From assembly GCA_964544335.1 (NCBI GenBank), contig CAZJAJ010000002.1, positions 78,109 through 142,108 on the forward strand: 64,000 nt of DNA, given 5' to 3'. The notes beneath the pieces are model-generated. The model saw only the letters and a list, made by a program, of their open reading frames with translations. It had not been told where the DNA came from and made no database searches. Made by a program: the position numbers and the translations under genes. The DNA comes from an uncultured Methanosarcinales archaeon (GTDB taxonomy: Archaea; Nanobdellota; Nanobdellia; Woesearchaeales; JABIAG01). Positions 236 to 20,327 of this stretch are shown piece after piece (within the stretch, counting starts at the first letter, position 1; each line of letters begins with the position of its first letter).

Positions 236-238
236 AAT

Positions 239-1315: not shown

Positions 1316-1347
1316 AAGAACACTACAAACTCATTTAAAGCTTTGGA

Positions 1348-2124: not shown

Positions 2125-2175
2125 ATCATGCCTACAGCCAGATACCTTTATAAAATTATACACAAAGCAAAGAAC

Positions 2176-2787: not shown

Positions 2788-3313
2788 ACACTTTAACACC
2801 CCGCAAGTGCTTGAACAAATAAAACGAACACTAGAAAATGAAGGAACCGTGCAACTACAAGATTTCTTAGCACCAGATCTCTACAATCAGCTCATCCAAA
2901 CAATCAAAGAAACAGCACTCGCAGAAGAACAACAGCTACTCACGCACACCTACAAAAAAGGACCCGTTCCCTACATGCCAGAAGTAGAACAATTTCTTCA
3001 ATTCATTGATCTCAAACAAGAATCAGCATCACTTAAAGTATTCACCTGGAAAGACTACATGCTTTTGCATGACAACAACCAAACGCTACCTGAATATGAA
3101 ATCATACTTGACTGTACTGATGCTTGGGATGAAAACGCAGGTGGAGAAATAACCTACACCGATGGTGAAGGTAACAGTGGAACACTTCCTGCAAAAGCAA
3201 ATACCCTCACTATCACCAAAACACAAGGGCTACAGCGGTTTGTACACTACTGTAATCACTACGCAAAAGACAAACAACGAGTACTCATTTTCATATCAGC
3301 TTCTAGCAATTAA
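2777..3313 (+). CDS. Tpa1/OGFOD1-like C-terminal (degenerate DSBH) domain, probably the continuation of the preceding gene
   Basis: 178-aa ORF in a different frame, overlapping the upstream ORF by 11 nt just after a G6 homopolymer (2764-2769). The architecture (catalytic domain then second domain) matches eukaryotic Tpa1/OGFOD1. Confidence 0.45.
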   Translation: MVNEHFNTPQVLEQIKRTLENEGTVQLQDFLAPDLYNQLIQTIKETALAEEQQLLTHTYKKGPVPYMPEVEQFLQFIDLKQESASLKVFTWKDYMLLHDNNQTLPEYEIILDCTDAWDENAGGEITYTDGEGNSGTLPAKANTLTITKTQGLQRFVHYCNHYAKDKQRVLIFISASSN

Positions 3314-3376
3314 TAGTATATGACCTTTTGATAGCAGTAATCTTTTTATAGATCCAATCGACCTATAAATCCCGTT

Positions 3377-5086
3377 ATGACAAAATTCATAGTTGTAGTC
3401 GGCGGAGTTATTAGCGGTGTTGGAAAAGGCGTATCCACAGCATCACTAGGACGAATTCTTCAAGAGTACGGATATTCAGTAACTGCAGTAAAAATAGATC
3501 CGTATTTGAACTTTGACGCAGGAACCATGAGGCCAACAGAGCACGGTGAAGTGTGGGTAACCTCTGATGGTGGAGAAATTGATCAAGACCTTGGTAACTA
3601 CGAACGATTCCTAGGAAAACTTATTCCACGAACACACAACATCACAACAGGTCAAGTATACAATCGAGTAATAGAAAAAGAACGAAAAGGAGAATACCTT
3701 GGAAAAACCGTTCAAATCTTTCCACACATCACTAATGAAGTAAAAGAGAGGATCAAAAAAGCAGCAGAAGGACACGACATCTGTCTTATTGAAGTGGGTG
3801 GAACCATAGGTGACTATGAAAACGTACCATTTCTCTTTGCAGCAAAAGGACTAGAGCGAGAATTTGGAAAAGACAGCGTACTCTATATCATGGTAACCTA
3901 CCTGCTCGTACCACGTCACATGGCTGAAATGAAAACAAAGCCAACACAACAAGCAATTAGAATGCTTGGAGAAAGTGCAGGAATATTCCCTGACTTCATT
4001 TTCTGTAGAGGACCTGCACCACTTGATGACATTAGAAGAGAAAAAATAGAAGTATACGCAAACATTCCATCAGAAAATATCATCTCAGAACCCGACATTG
4101 ATACCATCTATAGAATTCCACTTGATCTTGAAAAAGAAGAAATCGGATTAAAAGTACTCAAATTACTCAAACTTGAACCAAAGAAAGAACCAAAATGGGA
4201 CAATTGGGAAAAACTGGTGAATGCAATCGTTGCACCAAAACAAAAAATCAAAATTGCCATGATTGGAAAATACATCTCAACGGGTGATTTCACACTAGAA
4301 GATTCCTATGTCTCAGTAAATCAAGCACTCATACATGCAGGAGCAAATCTTGACACATCAGTACAAATTGACTGGATTGATGCAGCATCACTCGAAGAAA
4401 ATCCAGCAGCACTCATGCAACTAAAAGACTACCAAGGCGTACTTGTACCTGGTGGTTTTGGAAATTCTGGTGTTGAAGGAAAAATAAAAGCAATCAAATA
4501 CGCAAGAGAAAATGACATCCCATTCCTTGGTCTCTGCTATGGACTACAATTATCACTCATTGAATATGCAAGAAACGTATGTGGTCTCAAAGATGCACAC
4601 ACCACAGAAGTTGATGAACACGCAGAACACAAAGTCATTGACATCTTGCCAAGCCAGCGAGCACTCATGGAAAAAGGAGACTATGGAAACACTATGAGAC
4701 TTGGTGCATACGCAGCAGGACTAGATCCACTCTCAAAAACATACGCACTCTACAAAGAATGCAACCGTCTACAATCTGATCAAAAAGAATTCCTTACACT
4801 AACAGAATCACGAGTAGGAACAACGCCAGTAGAACACGCAGTAGTTGAGCGGCACAGACATCGATTTGAAGTAAGCCCAGTGTACGTAGATAAAATACAG
4901 GCAGCAGGAATGCACTTTCCTGGATTTCACAACAGAGACGATGGAACAAATCTCGTAGAATTCATTGAAATTCCAAATCACCCATTCTTTATGGCAACAC
5001 AAGCACACCCTGAATTCAAATCACGATTAGATGATCCAGCACCACTATTCTATGGATTTGTACGTGCATGTATCAAGAAACTCTAA
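3377..5086 (+). CDS. pyrG: CTP synthase
   Basis: 569 aa. N-terminal synthetase domain (VVGGVISGVGKGVSTASLG) and C-terminal class-I glutamine amidotransferase domain (GLCYGLQ, HPEF). Confidence 0.95.
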   Translation: MTKFIVVVGGVISGVGKGVSTASLGRILQEYGYSVTAVKIDPYLNFDAGTMRPTEHGEVWVTSDGGEIDQDLGNYERFLGKLIPRTHNITTGQVYNRVIEKERKGEYLGKTVQIFPHITNEVKERIKKAAEGHDICLIEVGGTIGDYENVPFLFAAKGLEREFGKDSVLYIMVTYLLVPRHMAEMKTKPTQQAIRMLGESAGIFPDFIFCRGPAPLDDIRREKIEVYANIPSENIISEPDIDTIYRIPLDLEKEEIGLKVLKLLKLEPKKEPKWDNWEKLVNAIVAPKQKIKIAMIGKYISTGDFTLEDSYVSVNQALIHAGANLDTSVQIDWIDAASLEENPAALMQLKDYQGVLVPGGFGNSGVEGKIKAIKYARENDIPFLGLCYGLQLSLIEYARNVCGLKDAHTTEVDEHAEHKVIDILPSQRALMEKGDYGNTMRLGAYAAGLDPLSKTYALYKECNRLQSDQKEFLTLTESRVGTTPVEHAVVERHRHRFEVSPVYVDKIQAAGMHFPGFHNRDDGTNLVEFIEIPNHPFFMATQAHPEFKSRLDDPAPLFYGFVRACIKKL

Positions 5087-5140
5087 CCCTTACGCTAGAG
5101 TACATAAACGTATATAAACCATTTTTTTTCTAGTATAAGA

Positions 5141-6295
5141 ATGAATTATTGTCTGGCATCTCAAGATATTAGAGAACGAATTAAACGTGGAGTGATCGCC
5201 GTAAAAGATGGAAAAAAAGGAAAAATCTCCAAGGAAATAGAAAAAAGAATACAGCCAGCATCTTTTGAACCATCAACAGGGAACTATCTTTGGGAAATTG
5301 ACATGTCCTATGGTACCTTTGGAGCACCAAGTGCAAACAAAACCGTAGAACAAATCATTCAAGCAACACCAAAAAACCGAAGAGTAAAACACAACATCAA
5401 AAACGGATTTGAACTCAAAAGAGGACACACCTATCTCATTCCACTTAACGAAACCATTAAACTCAGAAAAGGAGAAGTCGTAGGATCATCTCCTAAAAGT
5501 AGCACGGGAAGACTCTTTCCAAAGCTTCGATTAATGGCAGATTACAATCCTTGCTTTGATGAAATCCATGCAGTCTACAAAGCAGACACACACATTAACA
5601 TGTGGCTTCTTATTGAACCACAAGCATTTGATCTCATCATCCATCCAAATCTCGTACTCAATCAACTACGATTCTATGTAGGTGATGCCATCATGGCAGA
5701 CGCAGAAGTAAAAGCATTTCATGCAAAATCACCACTCATTCTTGCACGAACGTTTTACGGAGATCTAAAACCCGTAAAAGAACCAATCATTCACGAAGGA
5801 ATTCAACTCCATCTTGATCTCTTGGGTGAACATTCAAACGGCATCGTTGGACTAAGAGCACGAAATGTTGCAACACCAATTGACATGAGCAAGATCGACC
5901 ACTATGACATTGAATCATTTTTTGACATCCTTACACGAACTGAACAACTCGTAGTAAGAAGAGGAGAGTTCTATTTATTTTTCTCAAAAGAAGTACTCTC
6001 AACACCACCACTACTCAACTTTGAACTCAAAGATCACTCTCGTATTGGTCTGCAGGGACCACTGCACTTTGCAGGATTCATTGATAATGGATTCGTAGGT
6101 GATCTTGTGTTTGAAATACGATCAGATGAACTACACGACTTCGTACTCAAAGATGGCATGCCACTCTCAAGACTCACGGTCTACAAAACAAGAACAACAC
6201 CAGACAAACTTTATGGTGGAAAAATCGGTTCTAACTATCAAGGTCAAATAGGTGCAAAAGCAGCAAAATTCTTCAAAAAAATTCAATCTCTGTGA
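5141..6295 (+). CDS. 2'-deoxycytidine 5'-triphosphate deaminase, long DCD-family form (tandem dUTPase-like folds)
   Basis: 384 aa. N-terminal half carries SSPKSSTGRLFPKLRL (like the RSSLGRLGL motif). C-terminal half carries GFIDNGFVGDLVFEIRS (like GWIDPGFRGxITLEL). Both are typical of dCTP deaminase/dUTPase beta-clip folds. Confidence 0.5.
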   Translation: MNYCLASQDIRERIKRGVIAVKDGKKGKISKEIEKRIQPASFEPSTGNYLWEIDMSYGTFGAPSANKTVEQIIQATPKNRRVKHNIKNGFELKRGHTYLIPLNETIKLRKGEVVGSSPKSSTGRLFPKLRLMADYNPCFDEIHAVYKADTHINMWLLIEPQAFDLIIHPNLVLNQLRFYVGDAIMADAEVKAFHAKSPLILARTFYGDLKPVKEPIIHEGIQLHLDLLGEHSNGIVGLRARNVATPIDMSKIDHYDIESFFDILTRTEQLVVRRGEFYLFFSKEVLSTPPLLNFELKDHSRIGLQGPLHFAGFIDNGFVGDLVFEIRSDELHDFVLKDGMPLSRLTVYKTRTTPDKLYGGKIGSNYQGQIGAKAAKFFKKIQSL

Positions 6296-6705
6296 TACGT
6301 TCTATTATTCACAATCATTTCATGTCTATAGATCTGTTCGAGTAAAAATAATCGTGCCATTTCATGTGTGAACGTCATATCAGACAAACTCACAACCAAA
6401 TCTGCCTTCTGTACAACATCCTCACAAAGACCATCACTTGATCCAATCACAAACACAATATCTTTATTCACACCACTAATCTTCTTAGAAAACTGCCTTG
6501 ATGTAAATCGCTTGCCCTTCTCATCAAGTGCAACAAGAAAAGCTCCATCTGCTTTCTCAAGTAACTTCTTCCCTTCTTCCTTAACACTGCTGTCCTTAAT
6601 CTCAACAACATCACACTTGTCAAAATGATTGATCTGTGTCAAAAAATGTTCACAGCCTGTCTTAATCCACTTCTCTTTTACTTTCCCAATTGCAACAATT
6701 CTCAT
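6283..6705 (-). CDS. rlmH: 23S rRNA (pseudouridine-N3)-methyltransferase RlmH (SPOUT family)
   Basis: C-terminal LSDMTFTHEMARLFLLEQIYRHEMIVNNRTYHRD matches the RlmH/YbeA tail. Start set at MRIVAIGK (ATG at 6705). Confidence 0.7.
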   Translation of the reverse strand: MRIVAIGKVKEKWIKTGCEHFLTQINHFDKCDVVEIKDSSVKEEGKKLLEKADGAFLVALDEKGKRFTSRQFSKKISGVNKDIVFVIGSSDGLCEDVVQKADLVVSLSDMTFTHEMARLFLLEQIYRHEMIVNNRTYHRD

Positions 6706-6713
6706 TTTGCTCA

Positions 6714-7580
6714 TCAAAAATGCATAGTGATCACAGGTCCTTTCATGGATGTAACTAATAGCACAATATCAAGGCCATGGTGTCCCACAAGTGAACCCGT
6801 TTTCACTAACTCCTTTCCTTTTTTAAGCAACGTCTCTTTATCTCTTCGCATCTTTGTAACACGATCTTCAGAGAACGTATAATACAAATCATACACTGCT
6901 TGCACATATGCATTCACCTCTTTCATAAACGCAACTTCCTTAGCATTAAGCGCCTGCACATCACCCACAAGATATTTGTATACATCTCCAATCATTTCAA
7001 TATCTCGAACAAGACTATACAAAAATGGAAGCTTATGGCTAGGGTGGTACCCATTTTTATTAAGCACACGCTTGCAAAAATTAGTGAACTTATTTACCGT
7101 ATCTTCAAGCATCTTAAGTTCTTCAATATCAGAATGACTAATGATCTTTTGCTCTACAAGACTCCCCATTTCCTTTAGCAAAATGAATGAACGTCTAAAC
7201 ATCGTATCAAACTCATGTTCAATACCCTTTGCCACATTCTTAATCACAACACGTTGCTTTGTTTGCTCAACAACTTCAAATCCAAGTAAATCTTCCTCTC
7301 GAATAACTTTTGGAACACCATCGTCTGCATACGTAATAGTCACCTCATCAAAACCACGAATGTACAAATCAGCAACATGTCGTTTCGTAAAGGTTTGTCC
7401 CTTCTTGATATCAAGACTCACCTGTGAAGCAACTCGCTTGCCCGTATGAATAACAATACGATCCTCTTTCTCATCAAGCATAACACGATCACCTTTGTGG
7501 ATATCTTGTTTCTCAAGCCATCGCTTTGGTAAACTCACCACAAGTGTACTCTTTGCAAGTTGGATAATATTTCGTTCCAT
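6714..7580 (-). CDS. AbrB/SpoVT-type DNA-binding domain fused to a PhoU-like domain (archaeal phosphate-uptake regulator family)
   Basis: N-terminal swapped-hairpin AbrB-like segment (LVVSLPKRWLEKQDIHKGDRVML) followed by a ~200-aa helical PhoU-like region. This architecture is common in archaea. Confidence 0.55.
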   Translation of the reverse strand: MERNIIQLAKSTLVVSLPKRWLEKQDIHKGDRVMLDEKEDRIVIHTGKRVASQVSLDIKKGQTFTKRHVADLYIRGFDEVTITYADDGVPKVIREEDLLGFEVVEQTKQRVVIKNVAKGIEHEFDTMFRRSFILLKEMGSLVEQKIISHSDIEELKMLEDTVNKFTNFCKRVLNKNGYHPSHKLPFLYSLVRDIEMIGDVYKYLVGDVQALNAKEVAFMKEVNAYVQAVYDLYYTFSEDRVTKMRRDKETLLKKGKELVKTGSLVGHHGLDIVLLVTSMKGPVITMHF

Positions 7581-7673
7581 AATTCACAGAAATCATTGAA
7601 ATATATAAATCTAATGAAATATAAGGTAATTATAAGGATATAAGCAAAAATCTAAATCTACACAAAAAAATAA

Positions 7674-8159
7674 GTGTGTATGAACCACAACAAAGAACTC
7701 ATACTCGTGTCTAACCTGCGTAAAAACTGCAGAGAAACACTAACAAAAATGAGCAAGAGCACAGGAATTCCAGTATCAACATTGTTTGACATGCTGCGTA
7801 AAACAGACAAAATACGAAAACACACCTGCATCCCGTATTTTTCAAGACTAGGATATGGCGTAAAAGCTTTCATCAGCATATCAGTTGATGTAGCAGATAG
7901 AGCAAAACTCAAAGAACATCTTCTCACACACCCCAACCTCAATTCATTATTCAAAATAAACAACGGATATGATTACATGGCAGAAATAATCTGTAAAAGT
8001 CTACATGAACTAGAAATGATTAGTGATGCACTTGATCTTGAATTTACCGTGCAGAAAAAAGCAATTAATTACATCATAGAAGACATAGCCCGAGAAGAAT
8101 TTTTCTCAAATGCTTCCATGTGTCACAAAACACTCATGCATGAACAAAGTGGTGCTTAA
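7674..8159 (+). CDS. lrp: Lrp/AsnC family transcriptional regulator
   Basis: N-terminal HTH (LTKMSKSTGIPVSTLFDMLRK) plus C-terminal RAM/ACT-like domain. 161 aa. Confidence 0.7.
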   Translation: MCMNHNKELILVSNLRKNCRETLTKMSKSTGIPVSTLFDMLRKTDKIRKHTCIPYFSRLGYGVKAFISISVDVADRAKLKEHLLTHPNLNSLFKINNGYDYMAEIICKSLHELEMISDALDLEFTVQKKAINYIIEDIAREEFFSNASMCHKTLMHEQSGA

Positions 8160-8778
8160 TCTCTTTTCTAAAGAGTACAATAGTAAGCAGACCACTAATG
8201 ACAAGACCATACACAAGCACTGCAAGTACATTGCCTGAAAGCGCTTTAGTTCCAAGTGAAATAGCAATCAACATGTACGGAAATTGTGCAATAAGAGAGA
8301 TCAATAAGAAATTAGGTAGCTTAATCTTTGTCATTGCACTTGCAACAATAAACAGAGGGTTAGGAGTAAGTGGCAACACATGCACAATCCAAAGACCCTC
8401 AACAAAATCCTTTTTGATAATCTTTTGAAACCGTTTCAAATCATTCATATGTCGTTCAAGAAGCATAAACTTTCCATGTCCAAAATGTCGAACAGACAAA
8501 AAACCAATACTCATTCCAACAATGGATGAAACCACACCAATAGCAATAGCAGGATACATGCCATACACTGATCCTACAACGATCATAAGCAGGGTAAAAA
8601 TATTGCCTTCCACTACAACTGCAATGGCAAGAATAAGAATTACAAGAATTGTCCAAGCAGGGTTGATATACTGACTCACATACCCAACAATACCGCCGCC
8701 AAAGAGCTTTTCTTGTATTACAAATAAGATATTGAACAAGAAAACAGTACTTAGCACAAGCAACAGGAACTTTTTCAT
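8134..8778 (-). CDS. DedA/SNARE-associated (TVP38/TMEM64) family membrane protein
   Basis: 214 aa with 5-6 predicted TM helices. Glycine-rich re-entrant segments typical of DedA. Confidence 0.5.
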   Translation of the reverse strand: MKKFLLLVLSTVFLFNILFVIQEKLFGGGIVGYVSQYINPAWTILVILILAIAVVVEGNIFTLLMIVVGSVYGMYPAIAIGVVSSIVGMSIGFLSVRHFGHGKFMLLERHMNDLKRFQKIIKKDFVEGLWIVHVLPLTPNPLFIVASAMTKIKLPNFLLISLIAQFPYMLIAISLGTKALSGNVLAVLVYGLVISGLLTIVLFRKEIKHHFVHA

Positions 8779-8814
8779 CCCTCTACATAGATAAAACTGG
8801 TACTTAAACCTTTC

Positions 8815-9588
8815 CTAAAGGACCTTTCGCTTAATTTCAATAGAAACGGCATCACACAGCACCCGTATCTTAAACGGACACAATCGATACTCAAGTTCAT
8901 GCGCGGCGCAATACGCAAGAATCTTCTCTTTTTCCTCTTCAGAAGAAAATCGAACAATCACATTAACCCCATCAACATCCGGTCTAAGAATATCAAAATC
9001 AGCAAGATCTTCAAGTACTTGTGCTCGAATCTCTTTCAAAAACGCAACACGATCAGGAAGCTCTTTCAAACACAACTTCAAATCACGTTTTTTCTCTTTA
9101 TCAAAATCACTCTCAAATGGAATTTGCATATTGGACGCTAACATACCACCATAGCCAAAATTCACCATCTTTGCATTGCCAAAGCTACACACCACAATGT
9201 CCGCATCAGGAATATACTGTCCAATACTTCCACACGTATCTGCAATCACAAGAACGCCCTTATCCTTGAGCATCTCATAATCATACTCTTGAATAAATGC
9301 ATACGCTGCCATATCATGAAATAACAGTACACTCTTTTCTCGTACTTGAGAAAAATCAATCATGCCAAGATCAGTTGCAAGCTCATGCAATTGAAACTTC
9401 TCCTTCTTTCCATATTGTGCATATGTAATCCATCCGCCCTGATCAGGAATACACAAATCAGAATACCCCATCTGCCGTGCCCACTTCAGTGCAAGATGAA
9501 TAGCCTTATTACACCTGGAAGTAAGTAGAACATTCTTCTTTCCAGTAAGATCTTGGAGCATTTCCATAATACAGAACGAAGCAAGCAA
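8815..9588 (-). CDS. PLP-dependent enzyme, DegT/aminotransferase-like fold (short form)
   Basis: CSFGNAKMVNFGYGGML resembles the SFxxxK...GEGG lysine motif of DegT/ArnB-type aminotransferases, preceded by an Asp (VIAD). It is shorter (257 aa) than canonical members. Confidence 0.35.
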   Translation of the reverse strand: MLASFCIMEMLQDLTGKKNVLLTSRCNKAIHLALKWARQMGYSDLCIPDQGGWITYAQYGKKEKFQLHELATDLGMIDFSQVREKSVLLFHDMAAYAFIQEYDYEMLKDKGVLVIADTCGSIGQYIPDADIVVCSFGNAKMVNFGYGGMLASNMQIPFESDFDKEKKRDLKLCLKELPDRVAFLKEIRAQVLEDLADFDILRPDVDGVNVIVRFSSEEEKEKILAYCAAHELEYRLCPFKIRVLCDAVSIEIKRKVL

Positions 9589-9683
9589 TCTTTAAATCAC
9601 TATCGTTTCACTCCCAAAAAGTAGTCGAACATATCACTTTATTACCGACAAAGCTTAAATAGGGTAAAAATGAAAATTCTTTC

Positions 9684-10223
9684 ATGATCATAGGAATAAC
9701 TGGCACAAACGGCTCTGGAAAAGACACCGCCGCAAGTTTCCTAGTAAAGGGAGGATTCTCAAGATACTCCCTCTCAGACATCTTAAGACAAGAATGCGAG
9801 TTTAGAAAACTACCAAAAGACAGAGACACATTAATTCTTCTGGGCAACCAACTACGAAAAGAACACGGGGCGCATGTACTTGCAAAAATGATCCTTGAAC
9901 GCATACAACAAAACGAAGATGATCTTGCAGTAATCGTATCAATAAGAAATGGAAGTGAAGTAAAATTCCTCAAAAACCATCCTGAATTCAAACTCATCGC
10001 AATAGATGCACCAATTGAAGAGCGATACGAACGTGCAAAACAACGAGCAACAGAACAAGACGATATCACCTTCAAAAAATTTCAACAACAAGAAGAAAAA
10101 GAAATGAACGGCGAGGATGAACATACACAACAACTCGCACAGGTGATCAACATGGCAGACGAATTCATCACTAACGATGGTTCAGAAGAAGACTTCTACA
10201 TGAAAATTGCAAAATTAATCTAA
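9684..10223 (+). CDS. P-loop nucleotide kinase (dephospho-CoA-kinase/dNMP-kinase-like, COG0237-type)
   Basis: Walker A IIGITGTNGSGKDT at the N-terminus. 179 aa. Confidence 0.5.
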   Translation: MIIGITGTNGSGKDTAASFLVKGGFSRYSLSDILRQECEFRKLPKDRDTLILLGNQLRKEHGAHVLAKMILERIQQNEDDLAVIVSIRNGSEVKFLKNHPEFKLIAIDAPIEERYERAKQRATEQDDITFKKFQQQEEKEMNGEDEHTQQLAQVINMADEFITNDGSEEDFYMKIAKLI

Positions 10224-10705
10224 ATTTCCTGTTCTCTACTAAAAGGAATCTCAAGTGTTCCCGTTGGCAATTCAACAAATGCAACACCCTCAATTACAAG
10301 AATATTTTTCTCATCGTTTACAAACGTATTGAGTAAATAACTAACGCCCCCTCCAGCAGCACCTTCCCAACTCACTTGAGCATCTGATTCAACCACTTGT
10401 GTTTGCATACCTTTCAATTGAATCTCAGGAAGACCACTCTCTCCAACACTTTTATTATTCACAAAGAACTCAAGTTCAACTCGATCAATCGTAAGTGGAA
10501 CAAGTTCATTAGGATTAAACACAGAAACCGAATACGTCACATTAATGCCTTCAGAAGAAACACTATCGATCATTACACTCCCAAAAGAAACTTCTGGTGG
10601 CTCAACCAGCGATGGAGCAACAACCCACAATCGTGGAACCACAAATACGAGTGCAACGAGTACAACAAGAATTCCAACAAGCACAAGTGTACTACGCATC
10701 GTCAT
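10220..10705 (-). CDS. LEA_2 / WHy (NDR1/HIN1-like) domain protein with N-terminal membrane anchor
   Basis: N-terminal TM helix, then a beta-rich ~120-aa domain (VTYSVSVFNPNELVPLTIDRVELEFFVNNKSVG) typical of LEA14/WHy. Confidence 0.45.
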   Translation of the reverse strand: MTMRSTLVLVGILVVLVALVFVVPRLWVVAPSLVEPPEVSFGSVMIDSVSSEGINVTYSVSVFNPNELVPLTIDRVELEFFVNNKSVGESGLPEIQLKGMQTQVVESDAQVSWEGAAGGGVSYLLNTFVNDEKNILVIEGVAFVELPTGTLEIPFSREQEI

Positions 10706-11660
10706 ACGGTATATTAATACCGTCTCTATTTAAACGTTCTCTATGAAGGTGTAGTTCAAGAGCTTCTCTTTCCTTTCTTTCTTCTTCTATATTATCACGA
10801 AGATAAAAAGCAGGATCTTCAATGTATGTTTTCATTTTACCAAGAGCTTTTTTTTGAATCTGCCGGACTCGCTCTCGTGTTCTACCAATAGTTCTTGAAA
10901 CTTCCTCAAGTGTCTTTGGAATAGTACCATCAAGACCATAGCGCATGCGTAACACTTCTTGTTCTCGTTCATCAAGTAAGAAAAAACATTCATTCATCAC
11001 ATCAATAATATTCTCATCAGAAAGCTGTTCAGAAGGGTTGTCCACATCTGCTGCAACAATCTCTTCTAAACTAAATTCGCTGCCCTGTTCAAGTGGGTCA
11101 TGAAGAGACCGAACAGGTTCAGTAATGGCAGTATCAAGTCGTCTAATGACACCTGGACTAACATCTAAATTCTCATGTTCACCAAGATAGCTAGCCAACA
11201 TTTCATACGAAGGAACCTCTCCATGCTCACGAGTGAGTATTCCTTTAGCACGTTTGATTTTTCGAATCTTATTTGCAGAAGCAACAGGAATTCGAATAAT
11301 TCTACTCTTCTCAAAAATTGCACGTCGCATACCCTGTTTAATCCACCAAGAACCATAAGAAGAAAACTTAGCACCCTTATCAGGATCATATTTCTCAGCA
11401 GCTTTCATAAGACCAATATTTCCTTCAGAAATTAGATCAGGCATAGGAAGACCCATGCCCTTAAAATCATGAGCAATTTTAACCACGAGTCGAAGGTTTC
11501 TCTTAATCAGTTCATCTCTTGCATCAAGATCACCATCACGTGATCTATATCCTAGGATCGTCTCTTCCTCTCTGCTAAGAAGTGGATATTGACCAATATC
11601 TTGCATATATGATCTCATAGCATCATCAGTTGCTTTACCCTTACCCATGAAGAGAAGCAA
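10692..11660 (-). CDS. RNA polymerase sigma-70 family sigma factor (regions 1.2, 2, 3, 4)
   Basis: Region 2 has DLISEGNIGLMKAAEKYDPDKGAKFSSYGSWWIKQGMRRAI (like DLIQEGNIGLMKAVEKFD...YATWWIRQAI). Region 4.2 has TLEEVSRTIGRTRERVRQIQKKALGKMK. The N-terminal RSYMQDIGQYPLLSREEE matches region 1.2. Confidence 0.85.
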   Translation of the reverse strand: MLLFMGKGKATDDAMRSYMQDIGQYPLLSREEETILGYRSRDGDLDARDELIKRNLRLVVKIAHDFKGMGLPMPDLISEGNIGLMKAAEKYDPDKGAKFSSYGSWWIKQGMRRAIFEKSRIIRIPVASANKIRKIKRAKGILTREHGEVPSYEMLASYLGEHENLDVSPGVIRRLDTAITEPVRSLHDPLEQGSEFSLEEIVAADVDNPSEQLSDENIIDVMNECFFLLDEREQEVLRMRYGLDGTIPKTLEEVSRTIGRTRERVRQIQKKALGKMKTYIEDPAFYLRDNIEEERKEREALELHLHRERLNRDGINIPYDDA

Positions 11661-11707
11661 AGTATCTTCTATTTAAAAAGAATAGTGTGAAAAAGCAAAA
11701 GAAAAAA

Positions 11708-11793
11708 TGCGAGGGACGTGATTCGAACACGCGCATCCACTAAGGAACTAGGCCCTCAACCTAGCGCATTTGACCAGACTCTGCCACCCCCGC
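11708..11793 (-). tRNA. tRNA-Leu (anticodon GAG)
   Basis: The reverse complement folds as GCGGGGG / 3-bp D-stem GCA-TGC / anticodon stem CTAGG-CCTAG with loop TTGAGGG / 13-nt variable arm / T-arm GCGTG-TTCGAAT-CACGT / CCCTCGC-A. An A/T-rich TATA-like sequence lies upstream. Confidence 0.85.
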
Positions 11794-11907
11794 AAAGCAC
11801 TTTTAGGGTTAAATAGAGATTTATAAATGTAGTGTTTGGCTCAATCTATCCTCAAACACAACAACCTTTATAAAAAATCAACACAATTTCAACAAAGGTG
11901 ATAACAC

Positions 11908-12327
11908 ATGTCAGTAATTGGAACTAATCTTACAAAAATTAATGTAGAAAGAAACGAACACAATGGAAAACTATCAGTAAAGAATAATCTTAACATCGCA
12001 AACATTACCAAGCTCAACCTAAAACTAGGAAGCACAAAATCAAGCGGTGTACGAATAAAATTCCATTACAATGCAATCTGGGAACCAAAAGCAGCAACCC
12101 TACTCATTGAAGGGGAAGTAATGTACTTGGCAGATGAAAAAACAACCGAAGAAATTCTTGACAACTGGAAGAAGAAAAAACCAATCAAAGCAGAAATCAT
12201 GACTCCAGTAATGAATAGTGCGCTTAGAAAATCAACTATTCAAGCACTCGTTCTATCTCAAGAAATGAACCTGCCAAGCCCAATTAAGTTACCAAGAGTA
12301 ACTGCAAACAAAGACAAAAAGAAATAG
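11908..12327 (+). CDS. hypothetical protein
   Basis: 139-aa ORF preceded by an A/T-rich promoter-like region. No recognisable motif. Confidence 0.35.
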   Translation: MSVIGTNLTKINVERNEHNGKLSVKNNLNIANITKLNLKLGSTKSSGVRIKFHYNAIWEPKAATLLIEGEVMYLADEKTTEEILDNWKKKKPIKAEIMTPVMNSALRKSTIQALVLSQEMNLPSPIKLPRVTANKDKKK

Positions 12328-12434
12328 ATTCTTTTTCTTTTCATATCTTTTTTCTTATTCTCTAATTATTCTCGAAAATTTACCTATCATTCACACCAGT
12401 AATCTTTTTAAAAACAGGTGACCTCACGTCAACC

Positions 12435-14711
12435 ATGGCCAAAGGAGAAGTTTCCCTAAAAGTTGCAGAAGCAATTCAGGACGATGTAAACAAAGGTATC
12501 GTGCGAATAGATACCTCATTCATGAAAGACATCGAAGTAAACCCGGGCGATATTATCGAAATAGAGGGCGAGAGAAAAACCGTTGGCATTGTAGACAGAG
12601 CATACCCAGGTGATCTTGGACTAGACATCATTCGAATGGATGGTCTTATGCGAAGAAACGCAAAAACCGGCCTTGGTGAATCAGTAAAGGTGCGAAAAGC
12701 GCAAGTAAAAGAAGCAAAGAAAATCACCATTGCTCCAGCACGAAAAGGAATTGTTGTAAGAGCATCACCAAACACGTTTAGAAGAGGACTACTTGGACGA
12801 GCAGTAGTAAAAGGTGACATCATTTCTCTTGGCGGCGTAAAACGTCGAAGAGCAACCATGGCAGACAACGAATTCTTTGACAAAGTATTCTCCATGCAAG
12901 AAGATCACTACTCATCATTCTTTGCAGATCTCAAATTCATCGTAGTGTCCTGTGACGTAAAAGGACCTGCAATCATTACAGAAAACACAGAAGTCGTACT
13001 TAATCCAGAATCAGTTGAAGTAAAAGAAGATGAAGTCCCAGATGTATCCTATGAAGACATCGGTGGTCTTGATGTTGAACTCAAAAAAGTTCGTGAAATG
13101 ATTGAGCTTCCACTCAAGCACCCAGAACTCTTTGAACGTCTTGGTATCGAGCCACCAAAAGGTGTACTCATGCACGGACCACCAGGAACAGGTAAGACCC
13201 TACTTGCAAAAGCAGTAGCAAATGAAACCAATGCAAACTTCATCCTCATTAACGGACCAGAAATCATGTCCAAATTCTATGGTGAATCAGAAGCAAACCT
13301 GCGAAAGAAATTCGAAGAAGCAGAAAAAAACGCACCATCCATCATTTTCATTGACGAAATAGATGCCATTGCATCAAAACGTGAAGAAACACAAGGCGAA
13401 GTAGAAAAACGAGTGGTAGCACAAATGCTTGCCCTCATGGATGGCCTCAACAGCAGAGGAAAAGTAGTAGTTATTGCAGCATCAAATATTCCAAACGCAC
13501 TTGATCCAGCACTTCGAAGACCTGGACGATTTGACAGAGAACTTGAAATTGGTGTTCCAGGACAAGAAGCACGACATGAAATTCTTAAAATTCACACACG
13601 AAACATGCCGCTTGAAAATGATGTAGACTTACAAGACATCTCAAGTGTCACACATGGATTTGTAGGTGCAGACATTTCAGCACTTGCAAAAGAAGCAGCA
13701 ATGATTGTCCTTCGAAGAGTCTTCCCAGATATTCAATCAAAAGAAGAAGACGAACCCATCCCAAGAGAAATTCTTGACAAACTCATCATCACCCATGCAG
13801 ATTTCTACGAAGCACTCAAAGTCGTAAGACCAAGTGCAATGAGAGAAGTACTTGTTGAAGTACCAAATATTCCTTGGACAAAAGTTGGTGGACTTGAAGA
13901 AATCAGGCAAGAACTCACCGAAGCAGTAGAGTGGCCACTAAAGAAACCAGAAAGTTTCAAACGACTTGGAATCAAACCACCTCGAGGTGTACTCCTCTAT
14001 GGTCCACCTGGAACAGGTAAAACTCTACTTGCAAAAGCAGTAGCAACAGAAACTCAAGCAAATTTCATTGCTGTAAAAGGACCAGAGCTCCTTAGCAAAT
14101 GGGTAGGTGAATCTGAAAAAGCAGTGCGAGAAGTATTCAAAAAAGCACGCCAAACATCACCAACAATTATCTTCTTTGATGAAATTGATGCAATAGCACC
14201 ACGAAGAGATAGCAATCAAGACTCCAAAGTAACCGAGCGAGTAGTAAACCAACTCCTCACTGAAATGGATGGCCTTGAAGAACTCCATGACGTAATCGTA
14301 ATTGCAGCAACAAACAGACCAGACATCATGGATGGAGCACTCTTAAGACCTGGACGTTTTGATCGAATAGTACTCACTGCAGTACCAAATGAAGAAGCAA
14401 GACAACAAATCTTTAGCGTGCATGCAAAAGATATCCCATTAAAAGATGTAGACCTCAAAGAACTTGCAAAAAAAGCAGAGGGGTATGTTGGAGCAGATAT
14501 CGAAGCAGTATGCAGAGAAGCTGCCATGTTTGCACTACGTGAAAACGAACAAGCAAATGAAGTAACCATGGAACACTTTACCAAAGCACTACAAAAAGTA
14601 CGTCCATCAGTAACCAAAGAAATCGAAGAAATGTATAAAAACATAGAAGGCCAATTTAAAATGGCAAAAGCAAATGAGATGAAAGATCATCTGACAAATT
14701 ACTACGGATAA
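12435..14711 (+). CDS. cdc48: Cdc48/VCP-like AAA+ ATPase (two AAA domains)
   Basis: 758 aa. Cdc48 N-domain, then two Walker A motifs (GPPGTGKT twice), SRH regions and the archaeal CdcA architecture. Confidence 0.95.
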
Positions 14712-15019
14712 TGAAACTATCAACTACAGAAAACATTGGACAATCCTATGAAATACTAGGAGTTGTAGAAGGCAACGTCATACAAACACGTCACATTGGA
14801 AGAGATCTCATGGCAGGTCTCAAAACCATTGTTGGTGGAGAAATTAAATCATACACAGACATGATGACAAAGGCAAGAGACACCGCGCAAGAACGAATGA
14901 TTGAGCAAGCAAAAGAACTTGGTGCAGATGCAATTGTCAACATCAGATTTGCAACAGCAGACATTCTACAAGGAGCAGCAGAAGTACTTGCATACGGGAC
15001 TGCAGTTAAACTAAAATGA
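14711..15019 (+). CDS. YbjQ/UPF0145 family protein
   Basis: 102 aa. GADAIVNIRF...AYGTAVKL is characteristic of the YbjQ_1 heavy-metal-binding family. Confidence 0.6.
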   Translation: MKLSTTENIGQSYEILGVVEGNVIQTRHIGRDLMAGLKTIVGGEIKSYTDMMTKARDTAQERMIEQAKELGADAIVNIRFATADILQGAAEVLAYGTAVKLK

Positions 15020-15741
15020 CCACAGCAAAAGAAATCGTAGAGTTCCTAGATGAACAATTAGAATCAAGATCAATTGAAGATGCATCAAATAATGGACTAC
15101 AGGTAGGAAACCCAAATAAGAACATTGAGAAAATAGGATTTGCTGTTGATGCAACTCTTGACACATTCAAAAAAGCAAAAGAAAAAGGATGTGATATGCT
15201 CATAACACACCACGGAATCAGCTGGGGAGATTCATTAAAACACATCACAGGAAATAACTTTGATCGTATCTCATTCTTAACACAAAATGATCTTGCACTC
15301 GTAGCATATCATCTTCCACTTGACCTCTCAATGAAATACGGGAATAATGCAGTACTTGCACAACATCTTGATCTAAGAAAAGTAAAACCATTCTCATATG
15401 GTATTACAGGCGAGCTAAAAAAAGAACTCACCATAAAACAACTCGGCCTTCTCCTCAACAAAGTGTGCAACACCAACTGTAAAATATTTGCACACGGAAA
15501 AGAAATCATCCGATCACTAGCAATTATTTCAGGTTCAGGATCAAAAATGACGGAGCAAGCATCCCATGTAGCTGATGCATTCATCACGGGCGACCTTGCC
15601 TACGGTATGCAGCACGTTGCAAAGGAAGTGAAAACAAACCTTGTACTTGCAGGACACTATGAAACCGAAACCTTTGGTCTAAGAGCACTCAGCCCTCTAC
15701 TGAAGAAGAAGTTTCCTGTAGATACCCTCTTCATAGAATAA
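15016..15741 (+). CDS. NIF3 family dinuclear-metal-centre protein
   Basis: 241 aa. GFAVDATLDTFKKAKEKGCDMLITHHG and a C-terminal GHYETE are typical of NIF3/YqfO. Confidence 0.65.
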   Translation: MTTAKEIVEFLDEQLESRSIEDASNNGLQVGNPNKNIEKIGFAVDATLDTFKKAKEKGCDMLITHHGISWGDSLKHITGNNFDRISFLTQNDLALVAYHLPLDLSMKYGNNAVLAQHLDLRKVKPFSYGITGELKKELTIKQLGLLLNKVCNTNCKIFAHGKEIIRSLAIISGSGSKMTEQASHVADAFITGDLAYGMQHVAKEVKTNLVLAGHYETETFGLRALSPLLKKKFPVDTLFIE

Positions 15742-15775
15742 AAATGTTTAAAAGCTAAATCTCTTTAATACGATC

Positions 15776-16831
15776 ATGGCATCCATAGAACAACTACTTA
15801 TATTTAACAATCAGTGGGCAAACGCAGCACTTATTTTCTTTACCTTTGTTATCGTAGGGCAAATCTTTCTCTGGATAACAAAGAACATTGTACTACATGC
15901 AACAAGAAAAACAAAAACACAATTAGATGACCTTGTTGTAGAAGCTGCTCAAAAACCACTCTTCTGGATCATCACACTCTTTGGTTTTAAAGTAACCGTC
16001 AACGTTCTAGGATCTGCATTTACATACATAGACATACTCAATAATATTGTAAATACAGCAATCTACATCGTAGTAATTATCCTCATCTCACGTATTTTTA
16101 ATGCAATCATCATGTCATGGGGACAATCATTTGCATCAAAAACAAAATCACAAGCAGATGATACCATCCTACTCTTACTACACAAAGGAATCGCAATCAC
16201 TATTTGGGTACTTGGTTCACTCTACATTCTTAGCACATGGGGTATTCAAATAACACCGCTTCTAGCATCACTTGGTGTTGCAGGTATCGCAATTGCATTT
16301 GCTCTGCAAGAAACACTATCTAACATCTTTGGTGGTATCTCTGTAATCCTTGATAAGAATCTCTATGTGGGCGAAGTCATTGACATTGGTGGAGATGGCA
16401 CTAAAAAAGGAACCGTAATGGACATTGGCATGCGATCAACCAAAATCAAAACCTTCGATAATGAAGAAATGATTGTACCAAACAGCCAAGTAGCAAACTC
16501 AGTACTCATTAATGCAGCAGAACCCTCCAAATCAGTTCGTGTAGTTATTCCATTTGGAGTTGCATATGGATCAGATCCAGACAAAGTAAAGAAACTGGTA
16601 CTTGACGCACTCGTAAAATATATTCCTGACATCATGGAAGACCCAGAACCAAGCGTAAAGTTCCTTGAAATGGCTGACTCTTCACTTAACTTCAAAGCAT
16701 ACTTTTACATCAAAGACTACAAAAAGAAACTAGGGACAATAGATCTTGCAAACACCGTAGTATACAAAATACTCAATAAAAACAAGATCGAGATCCCATT
16801 CCCACAAATGGATGTGCACATAAGGAAATGA
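15776..16831 (+). CDS. mechanosensitive ion channel, MscS family
   Basis: N-terminal TM helices followed by the MscS beta domain (VGEVIDIGGDGTKKGTVMDIGMRSTKIKTFDNEEMIVPNSQ). Confidence 0.75.
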   Translation: MASIEQLLIFNNQWANAALIFFTFVIVGQIFLWITKNIVLHATRKTKTQLDDLVVEAAQKPLFWIITLFGFKVTVNVLGSAFTYIDILNNIVNTAIYIVVIILISRIFNAIIMSWGQSFASKTKSQADDTILLLLHKGIAITIWVLGSLYILSTWGIQITPLLASLGVAGIAIAFALQETLSNIFGGISVILDKNLYVGEVIDIGGDGTKKGTVMDIGMRSTKIKTFDNEEMIVPNSQVANSVLINAAEPSKSVRVVIPFGVAYGSDPDKVKKLVLDALVKYIPDIMEDPEPSVKFLEMADSSLNFKAYFYIKDYKKKLGTIDLANTVVYKILNKNKIEIPFPQMDVHIRK

Positions 16832-17421
16832 ACGACGAAAAGAAAATATCATTAAAACTTTCTTTTGCTATTTTTGTATGTTTAATAGGAATCCCTTATG
16901 CTGCCAGATTATTCATTGAAATTTTAGGGAGGATACACATACCATTCGTAGTGACGGCACTCTTGCCTGTTTTTTTAATATGTTTCATCGTAGTATTAAT
17001 CTCTTTTATTCCTATGACTCTCTTACTCTTGCCGCTTGAAGAAATTAATCCAGGAGTAGACCTTCTAGATACAGCAGGCTATCTGCAGTATGAACCTACT
17101 CTTTTAGGATACATAGTGTATGCCGTAGTAATTTGCCTGGCAATTCTTTTTGGAAATCTCTACGTATGGTATGGTGATAGAGTGGCAGAAAAAATAGGCA
17201 GAATGTCAACTCAATTATTCTCATGCGCATACATAAAAGCATACGCCTTTGCGCTTATTGCAATAGATATACTCTCTTTTCTTGTACTAGTTGCCTTAGA
17301 ACTAATAGGAATTCGTGAAGGCATCTTGGTATCTACTATTACGTGGATTTCTGCAATAGGTTTTTTACTATTGATCCCAACAGGAATACTCTTTCTAATC
17401 AAATATCTAAAAAGAAGATAA
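16828..17421 (+). CDS. polytopic membrane protein, unknown function
   Basis: 197 aa with ~6 hydrophobic helices. A/T-rich local composition. Confidence 0.4.
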   Translation: MNDEKKISLKLSFAIFVCLIGIPYAARLFIEILGRIHIPFVVTALLPVFLICFIVVLISFIPMTLLLLPLEEINPGVDLLDTAGYLQYEPTLLGYIVYAVVICLAILFGNLYVWYGDRVAEKIGRMSTQLFSCAYIKAYAFALIAIDILSFLVLVALELIGIREGILVSTITWISAIGFLLLIPTGILFLIKYLKRR

Positions 17422-17451
17422 TTTATATACAATTTTCATATATCTTCAAGT

Positions 17452-18318
17452 ATGATTAAACAAATTCTATCAAAACACGAAGATCTCTTTGGAAAGAATC
17501 CAGTCTATAAAGAGATAGGGTCTGGTGAAAATCACACTAATTACAAAATTGGAAAATACGTACTTCGTATATCAAGATCCAAATGGGCAGATTTACCAAA
17601 GGAGTTTGAATCTCTTAAGAAACTTCCAAATGGTTTAGGACCAAAGCCCATCTATTTGGGAAAAAATTATCTCATTCTTTCATATGTTGAGGGAAAGCAT
17701 GTATATAGATGGAGAGATAAACACGTAAAACAAGTAGCAAGAGAGTTTAAACGTATCCACAAGAAAAAATATGAATACACGACAGTTCACAAAAGAAAAA
17801 CCAAATGCATAAATATACTTAAGCTATTTCAAGAAGAAGTAAAAGAATACAAATCCTCGCTAAAAGACCCATATGTTAAAATAGCGTATAATTTACTCAA
17901 AAAAAGGAACCAACAAATAAATAACGTATCTGCCTTTTCTCAAGTGCATGGAGATCCAAATATCCCAAATATCTTATTCTCAAAAGAAGGAGCAAAGTTC
18001 ATTGATTTTGAGTGGGCAAAGATTTCGGATCCTGCATCTGATATTGGATCCCTTTACCGTATATATGCAGTATATCCGTGGAATCCAAAATTTACTGATG
18101 AAAAATTAAATTTTTTCCTAAAAGAATACGGAAACACTTCAAGAGAATTTAAAGAAAGAGTATGTACTTGGAACATATTGCACGTATGTCTTGATTACTT
18201 ATTTTTCTCATGGATGATTTCATCAAAACGAGAAATGCCTAAAAATATGTCTAATGAGTATTACGTAAATGGAAAAGAAAAAGCAATGAAAACACTTAAG
18301 CACTTTCAAAACGCTTAG
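17452..18318 (+). CDS. aminoglycoside-phosphotransferase/choline-kinase-like (APH family) kinase
   Basis: [34 protein letters not shown] matches the APH catalytic loop and DxE/DFE motif. Confidence 0.6.
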
Positions 18319-18895
18319 CAACTTCTTCCCAATTTACTACATTCCAAAATGCAGCAATATAATCAGGTCGTTTATTCTGATAGTTCAGATAGTATGCATG
18401 TTCCCACACATCAAGACCTAAAACAGGAATCTTCCCCTCACTAATAGGACTGTCTTGATTTGCAGTACTCATCACAGCAAGCTTTCCATCAGCAACAACA
18501 AGCCATGCCCATCCGGAACCAAATCGTGTTGCAGCAGCCTTCTCAAACGCTTCCTTAAACGCATCAAAGCTACCAAATGATTCAGTAATAGCATCAGCAA
18601 GTTTCCCTTCAGGAGCGCCACCCCCATTTGGACTCATAATGCTCCAAAATAATCTATGGTTGCTATGTCCGCCACCGTTGTTTCTAACAGCAGTTCTAAT
18701 ACCATCAGGAACAGCAGATAAATCTTTCAATAACTCATCAACATCCTTCTCTGCAAGATCGCTTCCCTCTAGTGCAGCATTAAGTTTATTCACATATCCT
18801 GCATGATGTTTATCGTGATGGATCTCCATCGTACGCGCATCAATGTGCGGTTCAAGTGCAGAAAATTCGTATGGTAAATTTGGTAATGTATTCAT
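18296..18895 (-). CDS. sod: Fe/Mn superoxide dismutase
   Basis: 199 aa. [15 protein letters not shown] and DVWEHAYY metal-ligand motifs. Confidence 0.95.
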
Positions 18896-18930
18896 AATAA
18901 TCCCTCCATTATTAAGGTAAAAAGCACCAA

Positions 18931-20001
18931 TTATAAGTCTTTCTGTGCTTGAGGCAATCGTACCGTAAACGTAGTACCTTCATCAACTTCAGACACACAA
19001 TGAATCTCTCCATCATGTGCACAAACAATTTCTCTACAGCTGTACAGCCCAAGACCCGTTCCATTTTCTTTTCCAAAAGTGGCATATGGTTCAAAAATAA
19101 TTGGCAGATGCACAGCTGAAATACCACAGCCCGTATCTTTAACTTCATATACAACACAATCATCTTCATCTATGCAACTAAAGGTGATGAGTCCTGTATG
19201 ATTACCAAAGCTTTCTCTTGCATTTTTCACAAGATTCACAAATACGTCTTCTATTTTTGTTTGGTCAACACAAACTAGTGATTGTGATCGTCCTCTGGTA
19301 AATAAATCAACGCCTTCTTTCCTAAATAAGTTTGTATAACGATCCTTCATCGCATCAACAAAATAATTGGCCCCAATAAATGCTCTCTCATAGGTACGCT
19401 TCCCTCTAAGATCTTCCATAACATTATTAAGTCGTGCAACAGATCGTTCATAGGCATCAATGATTTGTTGCACATCTTCTCTTTGCTCCTCACTAATATT
19501 ATCTTCGAGAAGGAAACGTGCATAATTTCCGACGGGCATAAGTAAATTTCTCATATCATGTAGTGCCCTATCTACATGAAATCGTGTCTGTTGTGCTTCT
19601 TCCAAAAGTTCCATCTGATCACTAATGTCATCAACCCATCCTTGCACTCTATTATCATTTCGAAGAACTCTACTATTAATTCTTCCAACAAACGTAGAAT
19701 CACATCCATAGTGGGCAAATCGTGAAGATACATGTATCTCTCCATTAGAAATAAGCTCATTAAGACACACTTCTCTATGTTGTTTATCTATCCAAAGTTC
19801 TTTTGGAAGCACACTCTCGCGAAGCATTCTTTTTACATCGGCTCGAGCAATTCTAAAACGTTCTTCAGAAGCATAGTGGTCTTTTGGACCAAGAAAATAT
19901 CGCACCAATTGATCATTACACACAACAGGACCACTAAATGGATCAATACCATCATTTATTTCAAAAAATCCAATATTTGCGTGCTCTTCGGTGGAATACA
20001 T
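18931..20001 (-). CDS. sensor histidine kinase (PAS-like N-terminus, HisKA, HATPase_c)
   Basis: H-box region [20 protein letters not shown]-binding G boxes VKDTGCGI...GTGLGLYSC. Confidence 0.8.
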
Positions 20002-20036: not shown

Positions 20037-20327
20037 CTACTCCTCATCAATTCGAGCAAGCGTAACATCAATAGTACTCACACGTACCATCTTGCCCTCA
20101 TCATTCTCAAACTCTTCACTATCAAGGTGCACATCTTTTACTACAACCTTATTCTCAAGAAATCGTTTCTGAGCAACCATGACAACATCCACTGCTCGGT
20201 TAATAAATTTCCCACGTGCACGCACAACAACTTCCTGTGCATCTTTAGTGGTAAACTGCATAACAATTGCAGTAACATAATTCATGAATGGTCTATTGCC
20301 AATAAAAATAGAATTTTCAGAGCTCAT
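20037..20327 (-). CDS. albA: DNA/RNA-binding protein Alba
   Basis: 96 aa. NYVTAIVMQF...ARGKFINRAVDVV...RVSTIDVTL matches the Alba fold consensus. Confidence 0.8.
   Translation of the reverse strand: MSSENSIFIGNRPFMNYVTAIVMQFTTKDAQEVVVRARGKFINRAVDVVMVAQKRFLENKVVVKDVHLDSEEFENDEGKMVRVSTIDVTLARIDEE

Follow-up and report, generated by a model that had tools for sequence, protein, structure and literature searches.

Why would an archaeon carry a gene for a bacterial sigma factor, and is the gene really part of its chromosome? The question is raised by a stretch of 64,000 nucleotides (nt) from an uncultured archaeon (contig CAZJAJ010000002.1 of GenBank assembly GCA_964544335.1, positions 78,109 to 142,108 of the forward strand), which was deposited under Methanosarcinales and is placed among the Woesearchaeales by GTDB. 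We refer to this whole stretch as the window and give all positions relative to it unless another contig is named. Archaeal RNA polymerase (RNAP) starts transcription with TBP, TFB and TFE, and we know of no use that it has for a sigma factor. A preliminary description, made from the letters of the window alone, had nevertheless reported a complete sigma-70 factor in archaeal surroundings. This observation stands, i.e., the gene is a genuine, intact member of the sigma-70 family, it is of bacterial ancestry, and it sits on a Woesearchaeota contig. With regard to its role, we see about an even chance that the archaeon has domesticated a horizontally acquired gene and retains it for a function that depends on the domains sigma2 and sigma4.

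The maximal open reading frame (ORF; 10692..11660, minus strand) encodes 322 amino acids (aa) from a TTG at 11660, as described before. Its likely start, however, is the ATG at 11648, which leaves a product of 318 aa. This start is favoured because of the position of the TATA motif discussed below and because the 318-aa product is identical to the database protein P0001. The Pfam scores of the protein exceed the respective cut-offs for Sigma70_r2 (62.1 bits, cut-off 24), Sigma70_r4 (51.8, cut-off 24.1) and Sigma70_r1_2 (38.7, cut-off 22). Among the three models that the preliminary description had proposed for a check (Sigma70_r2, r3 and r4), Sigma70_r3 matches weakly and stays below its cut-off (19.5 vs. 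25.3 bits). The sigma3 stretch, which has diverged the most within the protein, nonetheless aligns with sigma3 of SigA and forms three helices in the AlphaFold2 model, with a predicted local distance difference test (pLDDT) score above 90. NCBIfam ranks RpoS and RpoD/SigA models at the top, led by TIGR02394 (rpoS_proteo; 247.7 bits vs. an equivalog cut-off of 378.7). All of these are below their equivalog cut-offs and the superfamily model TIGR02937 alone passes. Furthermore, residues 5-273 align with solved SigA and RpoS chains (E ~1e-50).

The AlphaFold2 model, which was built on 49 homologues, has pLDDT values above 90 in sigma2, sigma3 and sigma4 (above 95 in sigma2) and below 50 for residues 180-208, i.e., in region 3.2. 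Its best fold matches in the PDB are all sigma subunits of RNAP holoenzymes. Given this fold and the full-length alignment with sigma factors, an unrelated helix-turn-helix family is ruled out. The protein opens straight at region 1.2. Region 1.1 is missing, as it is in many of the nearest bacterial relatives (274-295 aa). Region 2.2 holds the motif DLISEGNIGLMKA (DLISEGNIGL), and SigA has aligned counterparts of both DLISEGNIGLMKAAEKYD and FSSYGSWWIKQ. The protein has the aromatic residues of the -10 contact (Y, WW and Q of FSSY..WWIKQ) as well as the -35 motif RERVRQ, with TRERVRQIQ aligned to TRERIRQIE of SigA. Where the protein departs from its E. coli and B. subtilis counterparts, it matches the consensus of the bacterial subfamily, e.g., in region 2.4 (QGMRRA) and in region 3.0 (VASANK). 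The C-terminal tail has no counterpart among the bacterial relatives in the alignment, and its DNA bears the promoter motif of the neighbouring LEA_2 gene. Neither a signal peptide nor a recognisable export tag was found in the sequence of the protein.

The surroundings are archaeal throughout. All neighbours named in the preliminary description (aIF-1A, aRF1, Rpo12, L37ae, S17e, Alba and Pcc1; Table 1) were confirmed, Rpo12 by a weak match, and the window also holds CDC48, an S15 of archaeal/eukaryotic type, DRG, SRP54, XPD and HerA. Archaeal marker genes stand on either side of the sigma gene, with archaeal genes within 1 kb both ways. The nearest named relatives of the window's CDC48 are all Candidatus Woesearchaeota; other relatives are found at 90% and 78% identity. 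The GC content is flat across the window (~0.38), and every 2-kb tetranucleotide window across 8.5-13.5 kb is within one standard deviation of the mean. Compared to the other 59 genes, the sigma gene has z-scores of 0.02 for codon adaptation, -0.02 for GC and -1.3 for GC at third codon positions (GC3). That is, the codon-usage and tetranucleotide checks suggested beforehand reveal no break near 10.2-11.7 kb. In addition, a Logan contig from run SRR15635857 is 100% identical to window positions 10556-11883, which run from the tRNA-Leu through the sigma gene into the beginning of LEA_2. Since a separate assembly has the same junctions and both composition and codon usage match, chimerism is very unlikely. 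No bacterial-type rpoB or rpoC was found within the 64-kb window, whose largest ORF has 758 aa.

The ancestry of the gene is bacterial. Among 5.8 billion proteins, the best non-self match is P0002 (59% identity), which is encoded beside recR on a contig of 59% GC, i.e., in a bacterial context. Five further close matches whose contigs we inspected are likewise found in bacterial contexts (with, e.g., porins, MurD, LysM, Por_Secre_tail, LacI or a large Ser/Thr kinase), and the named close relatives belong to Victivallales, Lentisphaeria and Rhodothermales. A phylogeny had been proposed to identify the donor lineage. In a neighbour-joining tree (80 sequences, 272 columns, 100 bootstraps), the sigma protein falls within the bacterial SigA-type clade as sister to P0002, supported by 100/100 bootstraps, with a terminal branch of 0.358 compared to a median of 0.091. 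The gene is of the short SigA type without region 1.1 that is known from bacteria of the Planctomycetes-Verrucomicrobia-Chlamydiae and Fibrobacteres-Chlorobi-Bacteroidetes groups (PVC/FCB-like). A viral origin was considered as well and rejected, as viral contigs gave matches of 38-41% only.

Horizontal transfer is supported by this phylogeny together with synteny. Window positions 6957-9568 are syntenic with 5861-8561 of L089, a contig from Woesearchaeota with a CDC48 that is 78% identical to that of the window, and positions 11908-15016 correspond to L089 9554-12645. In between, the window has a variable segment of 2.3 kb, where L089 instead has an ORF of 193 aa that is unrelated and a tRNA-Leu(GAG) with an intron, in opposite orientation. 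For the closest relatives (CDC48 90% identical), synteny starts only from CDC48, and their sequence is free of sigma genes over 10 kb. The tRNA-Leu of the window is orthologous to the intron-containing one of L089; it is preceded by a TATA-like box of its own (~11820-11827), and a T-rich tract lies at the 3' end. Within 9253-9467 of L089, the tRNA-Leu(GAG) has an intron of ~47 nt and was found by Rfam while being missed by ARAGORN. Its 3' end recurs ~80 nt downstream as a direct repeat of 15 nt (ttcccgtctcccgca), which resembles an integration scar. For the window itself, an integrative element was rejected: the segment is not flanked by any convincing att-like copy of the tRNA-Leu 3' end, and there is no integrase in the vicinity.

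We also evaluated how the gene fits the expression signals and the base composition of its host. With the other 58 genes of the window as training set, a weight matrix recovers a TATA-like motif (TCTTTAWAWA) whose centre lies, in the median, 26.5 nt upstream of the start codons (e.g., at 12400-12410, 22245-22255 and 42896-42976), which implies mostly leaderless mRNAs. Divergent gene pairs have short common intergenic regions with mirrored TATA boxes. The motif in front of the sigma gene scores 9.9, which is within the top 0.034% of all 12-mers of the window, and its position at -27.5 implies a leaderless sigma mRNA as far as the motif can tell. With regard to composition, the gene's GC3 of 23% is at host level and below that of all bacterial relatives sampled (38-70%). 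The same holds for its overall GC content (38.8% vs. 42-59% in the relatives).

Next, we consider which parts of the protein changed on the way. We compared the window protein with its sister P0002 relative to a consensus of 118 bacterial homologues, which serves as a proxy of the ancestor. Given this proxy and the small counts involved, 42 lineage-specific changes are found for the window protein and 23 for P0002 (p = 0.025). This surplus is limited to sigma3 and region 3.2, where 24 vs. 9 changes are observed (p = 0.014), i.e., a ~2.7 times faster rate and an excess of ~0.165 changes per site. In sigma2 (3 vs. 3) and sigma4 (5 vs. 4), both proteins changed to about the same extent. This is also reflected in the identities to the consensus, which are 0.81 for both proteins in sigma2 and 0.76 (window protein) vs. 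0.78 (P0002) in sigma4, compared to 0.37 vs. 0.52 in sigma3. Window-specific changes at columns conserved to at least 90% are conservative, with a mean BLOSUM62 score of +0.94 vs. -1.31 expected for random replacement. Judged from these comparisons, sigma2 and sigma4 appear conserved and sigma3 with region 3.2 relaxed. If the excess in sigma3 and region 3.2 were due to neutral drift, we would expect ~20 extra changes over the 119 sites of sigma2 and sigma4, where a single one is seen. The preliminary description had offered a relic of horizontal transfer among its explanations. While the transfer is borne out, a relic is unlikely when sigma2 and sigma4 are without excess change.

The gene is not the only one of its kind. 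Another Woesearchaeota genome (L074) encodes a sigma factor at 9914-10780 on the plus strand, which is the one other archaeal example in our comparison and shows 39% identity to the window protein. Likewise an orphan, it has its best non-self match at 39-46%, and its named relatives are bacteria of the candidate phyla radiation (CPR) and Enterocloster. The two archaeal proteins group in 0/100 bootstraps and have different nearest bacterial relatives; for these two examples, we therefore consider the acquisitions to be independent. A single, vertically inherited Woesearchaeota sigma family is accordingly unsupported by the two examples. In L074, the gene is sandwiched by two intron-containing tRNA genes of the minus strand (9729-9824 and 10808-10929), such that tRNA genes adjoin the sigma gene in 2/2 archaeal cases. 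A TCTTTTAAATA box is located ~25 nt upstream of its ATG, and a HEPN/nucleotidyltransferase-like gene pair is found just upstream (8844-9649).

Sigma-70 genes in archaea of the DPANN group (named after Diapherotrites, Parvarchaeota, Aenigmarchaeota, Nanoarchaeota as well as Nanohaloarchaeota) were already published in 2021, and the window gene is one more example. According to Castelle et al. (2021; PMC8204110), these genes are "particularly prevalent in Woesearchaeota"; the authors excluded misbinning, detected no anti-sigma factors and did not commit themselves to a function. Our full-text literature searches returned no further paper that addresses DPANN sigma-70 genes. New here are the independent acquisition, the tRNA-adjacent insertion, the leaderless-type archaeal promoter motif and the constraint on sigma2 and sigma4 only.

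Within the reading to which we give an even chance, events may have been as follows. A Woesearchaeota archaeon would have taken up a short SigA-type gene from PVC/FCB-like bacteria by horizontal transfer, and the gene would have settled in a flexible chromosomal spot adjoining the tRNA-Leu. Its composition would then have drifted to the level of the host, and an archaeal TATA box ~27 nt upstream of the ATG would give a leaderless mRNA. Purifying selection may have kept sigma2, i.e., the binding to the RNAP clamp helices and the recognition of -10 elements, as well as the -35 helix-turn-helix of sigma4, while sigma3 and region 3.2 would have been relaxed. The product would act within the archaeal cell as an accessory regulator that binds DNA, RNAP or both, rather than as a canonical initiation factor. 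Such an intracellular accessory role is favoured because the promoter motif is of archaeal type, because the protein has no export signal and because the genome encodes HU and NrdR of bacterial type. Expression of the gene, selection on it within the archaeal lineage, a molecular partner and a function dependent on sigma2 and sigma4 are what we infer for the protein.

Several observations weigh against domestication. No sigma gene is present at the syntenic site or in the 20-kb loci of the related Woesearchaeota examined, and the gene therefore looks dispensable and lineage-specific. No orthologue of at least 60% identity was found among the 5.8 billion proteins. The relative-rate test has to be read with its small counts and its consensus ancestor in mind. 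Moreover, the purifying selection seen on the long terminal branch could for the most part predate the transfer and have acted in an unsampled bacterial donor of low GC content. If the transfer from such a donor was recent, the apparent amelioration would be coincidental, and the TATA box might have been present at the site before. Finally, pairs of sigma-70 -35/-10 elements are depleted in positions 1-20000 of the window (36 vs. 54 +/- 7.7 expected from dinucleotide-preserving shuffles), so that a conventional sigma regulon is unlikely.

The main rival of a domesticated gene is a neutral passenger that came from an unsampled bacterium of low GC content in a recent transfer, plays no role in the archaeon and has not yet decayed. 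The gene is an orphan in a variable, tRNA-adjacent location, it is missing at the syntenic sites of relatives with 90% and 78% identical CDC48, and archaeal RNAP has no use for it that we know of. The L074 sigma, which is an orphan of other bacterial ancestry, fits frequent, short-lived acquisitions as well. On the other hand, the ORF is intact, with a codon usage that cannot be told apart from that of the host and a GC3 below that of every sampled relative. Also the host-type TATA motif at the right distance and the single extra change in sigma2 and sigma4 in place of the ~20 expected under drift speak against an idle gene. We thus rate a passenger as rather unlikely, although it is the explanation to be taken most seriously next to domestication.

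A different use is conceivable for the surfaces that have been conserved. For region 2.2, the -10 residues and sigma4, no use is known other than with bacterial core RNAP and bacterial promoters. The protein might thus be delivered into a bacterial host or prey in order to redirect the core RNAP there, as done by sigma factors encoded by phages. A relaxed sigma3 is compatible with activity, given that sigma factors of the extracytoplasmic function type need sigma2 and sigma4 alone. The different sources of the two Woesearchaeota sigmas (PVC/FCB-like for the window, CPR/Firmicutes-like for L074) are what a matching of hosts would give, and some Woesearchaeota with small genomes may be episymbionts of bacteria (Castelle et al., PMC8204110). 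Against such an effector, the protein has no signal peptide or export tag, no secretion or delivery system adjoins its gene, and a protein transfer from DPANN archaea to bacteria is without demonstrated precedent. We therefore consider delivery into bacteria improbable.

The conserved region 2.2 could also serve within the archaeal transcription machinery. The Rpo1 clamp coiled-coil, which TFE and Spt5 use as their site, is homologous to the beta-prime clamp helices. Sigma might dock there as an alternative initiation or modulating factor, since its clamp-helix binding surface is fully conserved and the coiled-coil is conserved in all cellular RNAPs. The archaeal-type promoter motif and the Rpo12 gene on the same contig are in line with this. 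Such a factor would be without precedent, however, and the promoters of the window are TATA-type with sigma-70 -35/-10 pairs depleted. Furthermore, the beta flap-tip helix, i.e., the docking site of sigma4, has no established archaeal equivalent, and close relatives dispense with the gene. Docking on archaeal RNAP is thus highly improbable in our view. Taken together, it is unlikely that the protein is no idle cargo in one of these two senses, i.e., by reprogramming the RNAP of a bacterial partner or by docking on the archaeal clamp. If it were true, the independent acquisitions from different phyla would reflect selection and not chance.

An assembly or binning artefact that joined a bacterial fragment to an archaeal contig, as is known from chimeric metagenome assemblies and as the bacterial nature of the closest homologues might suggest, is effectively refuted by the native tRNA-Leu and CDC48 at distances of 47 nt and 790 nt, the identical junctions in the second assembly, the lack of a break in composition or codon usage, the GC content of 38.8% vs. 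42-59% in the relatives and the host-type promoter motif.

Downstream, the LEA_2 gene overlaps the end of the sigma gene by 14 nt, exactly as reported before. From this overlap, co-transcription had been suggested. LEA_2 has its own TATA motif within the 3' end of the sigma gene (score 10.0, top 0.031% of the 12-mers of the window) and the overlap therefore does not require co-transcription. An obligate operon partner was rejected on the same grounds and because no LEA_2 neighbour is found in the bacterial relatives examined. We also rejected LEA_2 as an anti-sigma factor, since there are only ~4 residues ahead of its transmembrane helix and LEA_2 is its sole domain. No close LEA_2 relatives were found in metagenome or viral contigs, and hence no conserved cassette can be demonstrated. 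The P-loop kinase gene on the other side of LEA_2 has no homology to the ORF that occupies this position in L089. Its match in PADLOC is to the kinase part of the 'dCTPase' defence model (E = 7e-23), and a 384-aa two-domain dCTP deaminase of DCD type is encoded 3.4 kb away from it (5141-6295, plus strand).

The window holds some further genes of interest. An HU gene (Bac_DNA_binding; 57919-58275, minus strand) encodes a DNA-binding protein of bacterial type in the same archaeal window. An NrdR repressor gene (22935-23417, minus strand) and a histidine kinase gene without adjacent receiver (18931-20001, minus strand) are likewise of bacterial type, and the closest relative has retained both in its syntenic contigs. 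Two small, conserved-looking ORFs are without Pfam match, namely a lysine/alanine-rich one of 56 aa beside aIF-1A (28369-28539, minus strand) and one of 139 aa between tRNA-Leu and CDC48 (11908-12327, plus strand), which has an orthologue in L089. The coordinates of the main features are provided in Table 1.

Table 1. Coordinates of the sigma-70 family gene, its parts and its surroundings within the window.
Feature	Position	Strand	Remarks
Sigma-70 family gene	10692..11648	-	318 aa from ATG at 11648; Pfam, NCBIfam, alignment, AlphaFold2
Region 1.2	11529..11624	-	aa 9-40; Pfam Sigma70_r1_2, 38.7 bits
Sigma2 domain, regions 2.1-2.4	11301..11510	-	aa 47-116; with DLISEGNIGLMKAAEKYD and FSSYGSWWIKQGMRRAI; Pfam Sigma70_r2
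Sigma3 domain and region 3.2	11025..11270	-	aa 127-208; 6-aa insertion SYLGEH (alignment)
Sigma4 domain, region 4.2 helix-turn-helix	10830..10976	-	aa 225-273; with TLEEVSRTIGRTRERVRQIQKKAL; Pfam Sigma70_r4
C-terminal tail	10695..10814	-	~40 aa; one long helix predicted (AlphaFold2)
TATA-box motif of sigma gene	11670..11681	-	TCTTTTTAAATA; centred 27.5 nt upstream of ATG
LEA_2-domain protein gene	10220..10705	-	N-terminal transmembrane anchor; Pfam LEA_2, 35.4 bits
TATA motif of LEA_2 gene	10725..10736	-	CGTTTAAATAGA; centred at -25.5, within last 45 nt of sigma ORF
tRNA-Leu(GAG), native	11707..11794	-	47-58 nt upstream of sigma gene; ARAGORN, Rfam
P-loop (d)NMP-kinase-like gene	9684..10223	+	convergent with LEA_2; Pfam AAA_17/AAA_18
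Variable segment	9569..11907		P-loop kinase, LEA_2, sigma, tRNA-Leu; tblastx vs. L089 and L086
CDC48	12435-14711		start 790 nt from sigma gene
Alba	20037-20327		
S17e	20324-20512		
eIF-1A (aIF-1A)	28659-29006		
aRF1	36702-37796		
Pcc1	50476-50682		
Rpo12	50679-50816		weak match
L37ae	50816-51049		

An intact sigma gene with a host-type promoter motif and selective conservation in an archaeon is a genuine puzzle. The alternatives are that an archaeal cell can reuse bacterial initiation factors or that an archaeon deploys them against or together with bacteria. The locus offers a defined protein, a promoter motif and an insertion site, and the pattern of sigma2 and sigma4 conservation indicates the surfaces of interest. 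That two Woesearchaeota acquired such genes independently, in both cases beside tRNA genes, suggests a recurring process.

Finally, we relate the window protein to known systems. Sigma factors encoded by phages and the SIG genes of the nucleus, which serve the plastid polymerase, provide a functional analogy, i.e., a sigma factor carried by a genome whose own RNAP needs none; unlike for the window protein, their target is known to be a bacterial-type core polymerase. MzaA of the anti-phage system MZA has a similar sigma2-sigma4 portion (model positions 475-703) within ~700 aa, while the window protein lacks its long N-terminal part. MZA or another defence system was thus rejected for the locus, as the match is restricted to the generic sigma portion (210 bits vs. 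a cut-off of 800) and no MZA partner genes are nearby. RpoS and other group 2 factors, which provide the best NCBIfam and PDB matches, are of similar length and likewise miss region 1.1. The window protein, however, scores far below the RpoS equivalog cut-off, and its neighbours in the tree are SigA-like and not proteobacterial RpoS. The sigma-70 set reported for DPANN (fam00359; Castelle et al. 2021, PMC8204110) is similar in its location on Woesearchaeota contigs and in the lack of an anti-sigma partner, while the window protein is not monophyletic with the L074 sigma. The closest resemblance is to the short SigA/RpoD factors of PVC/FCB-like bacteria (48-59% identity), with which it has in common the architecture 1.2-2-3-4 without region 1.1 and the signatures DLISEGNIGLM, WWIKQ.MRRA and RTRERVRQIQ. 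In contrast to bacterial SigA/RpoD, the window protein is encoded by an archaeon and shows a long branch, a 6-aa insertion, a fast evolving sigma3 and region 3.2 and a tail of 40 aa, and its gene combines an archaeal-type promoter motif with a low GC content.

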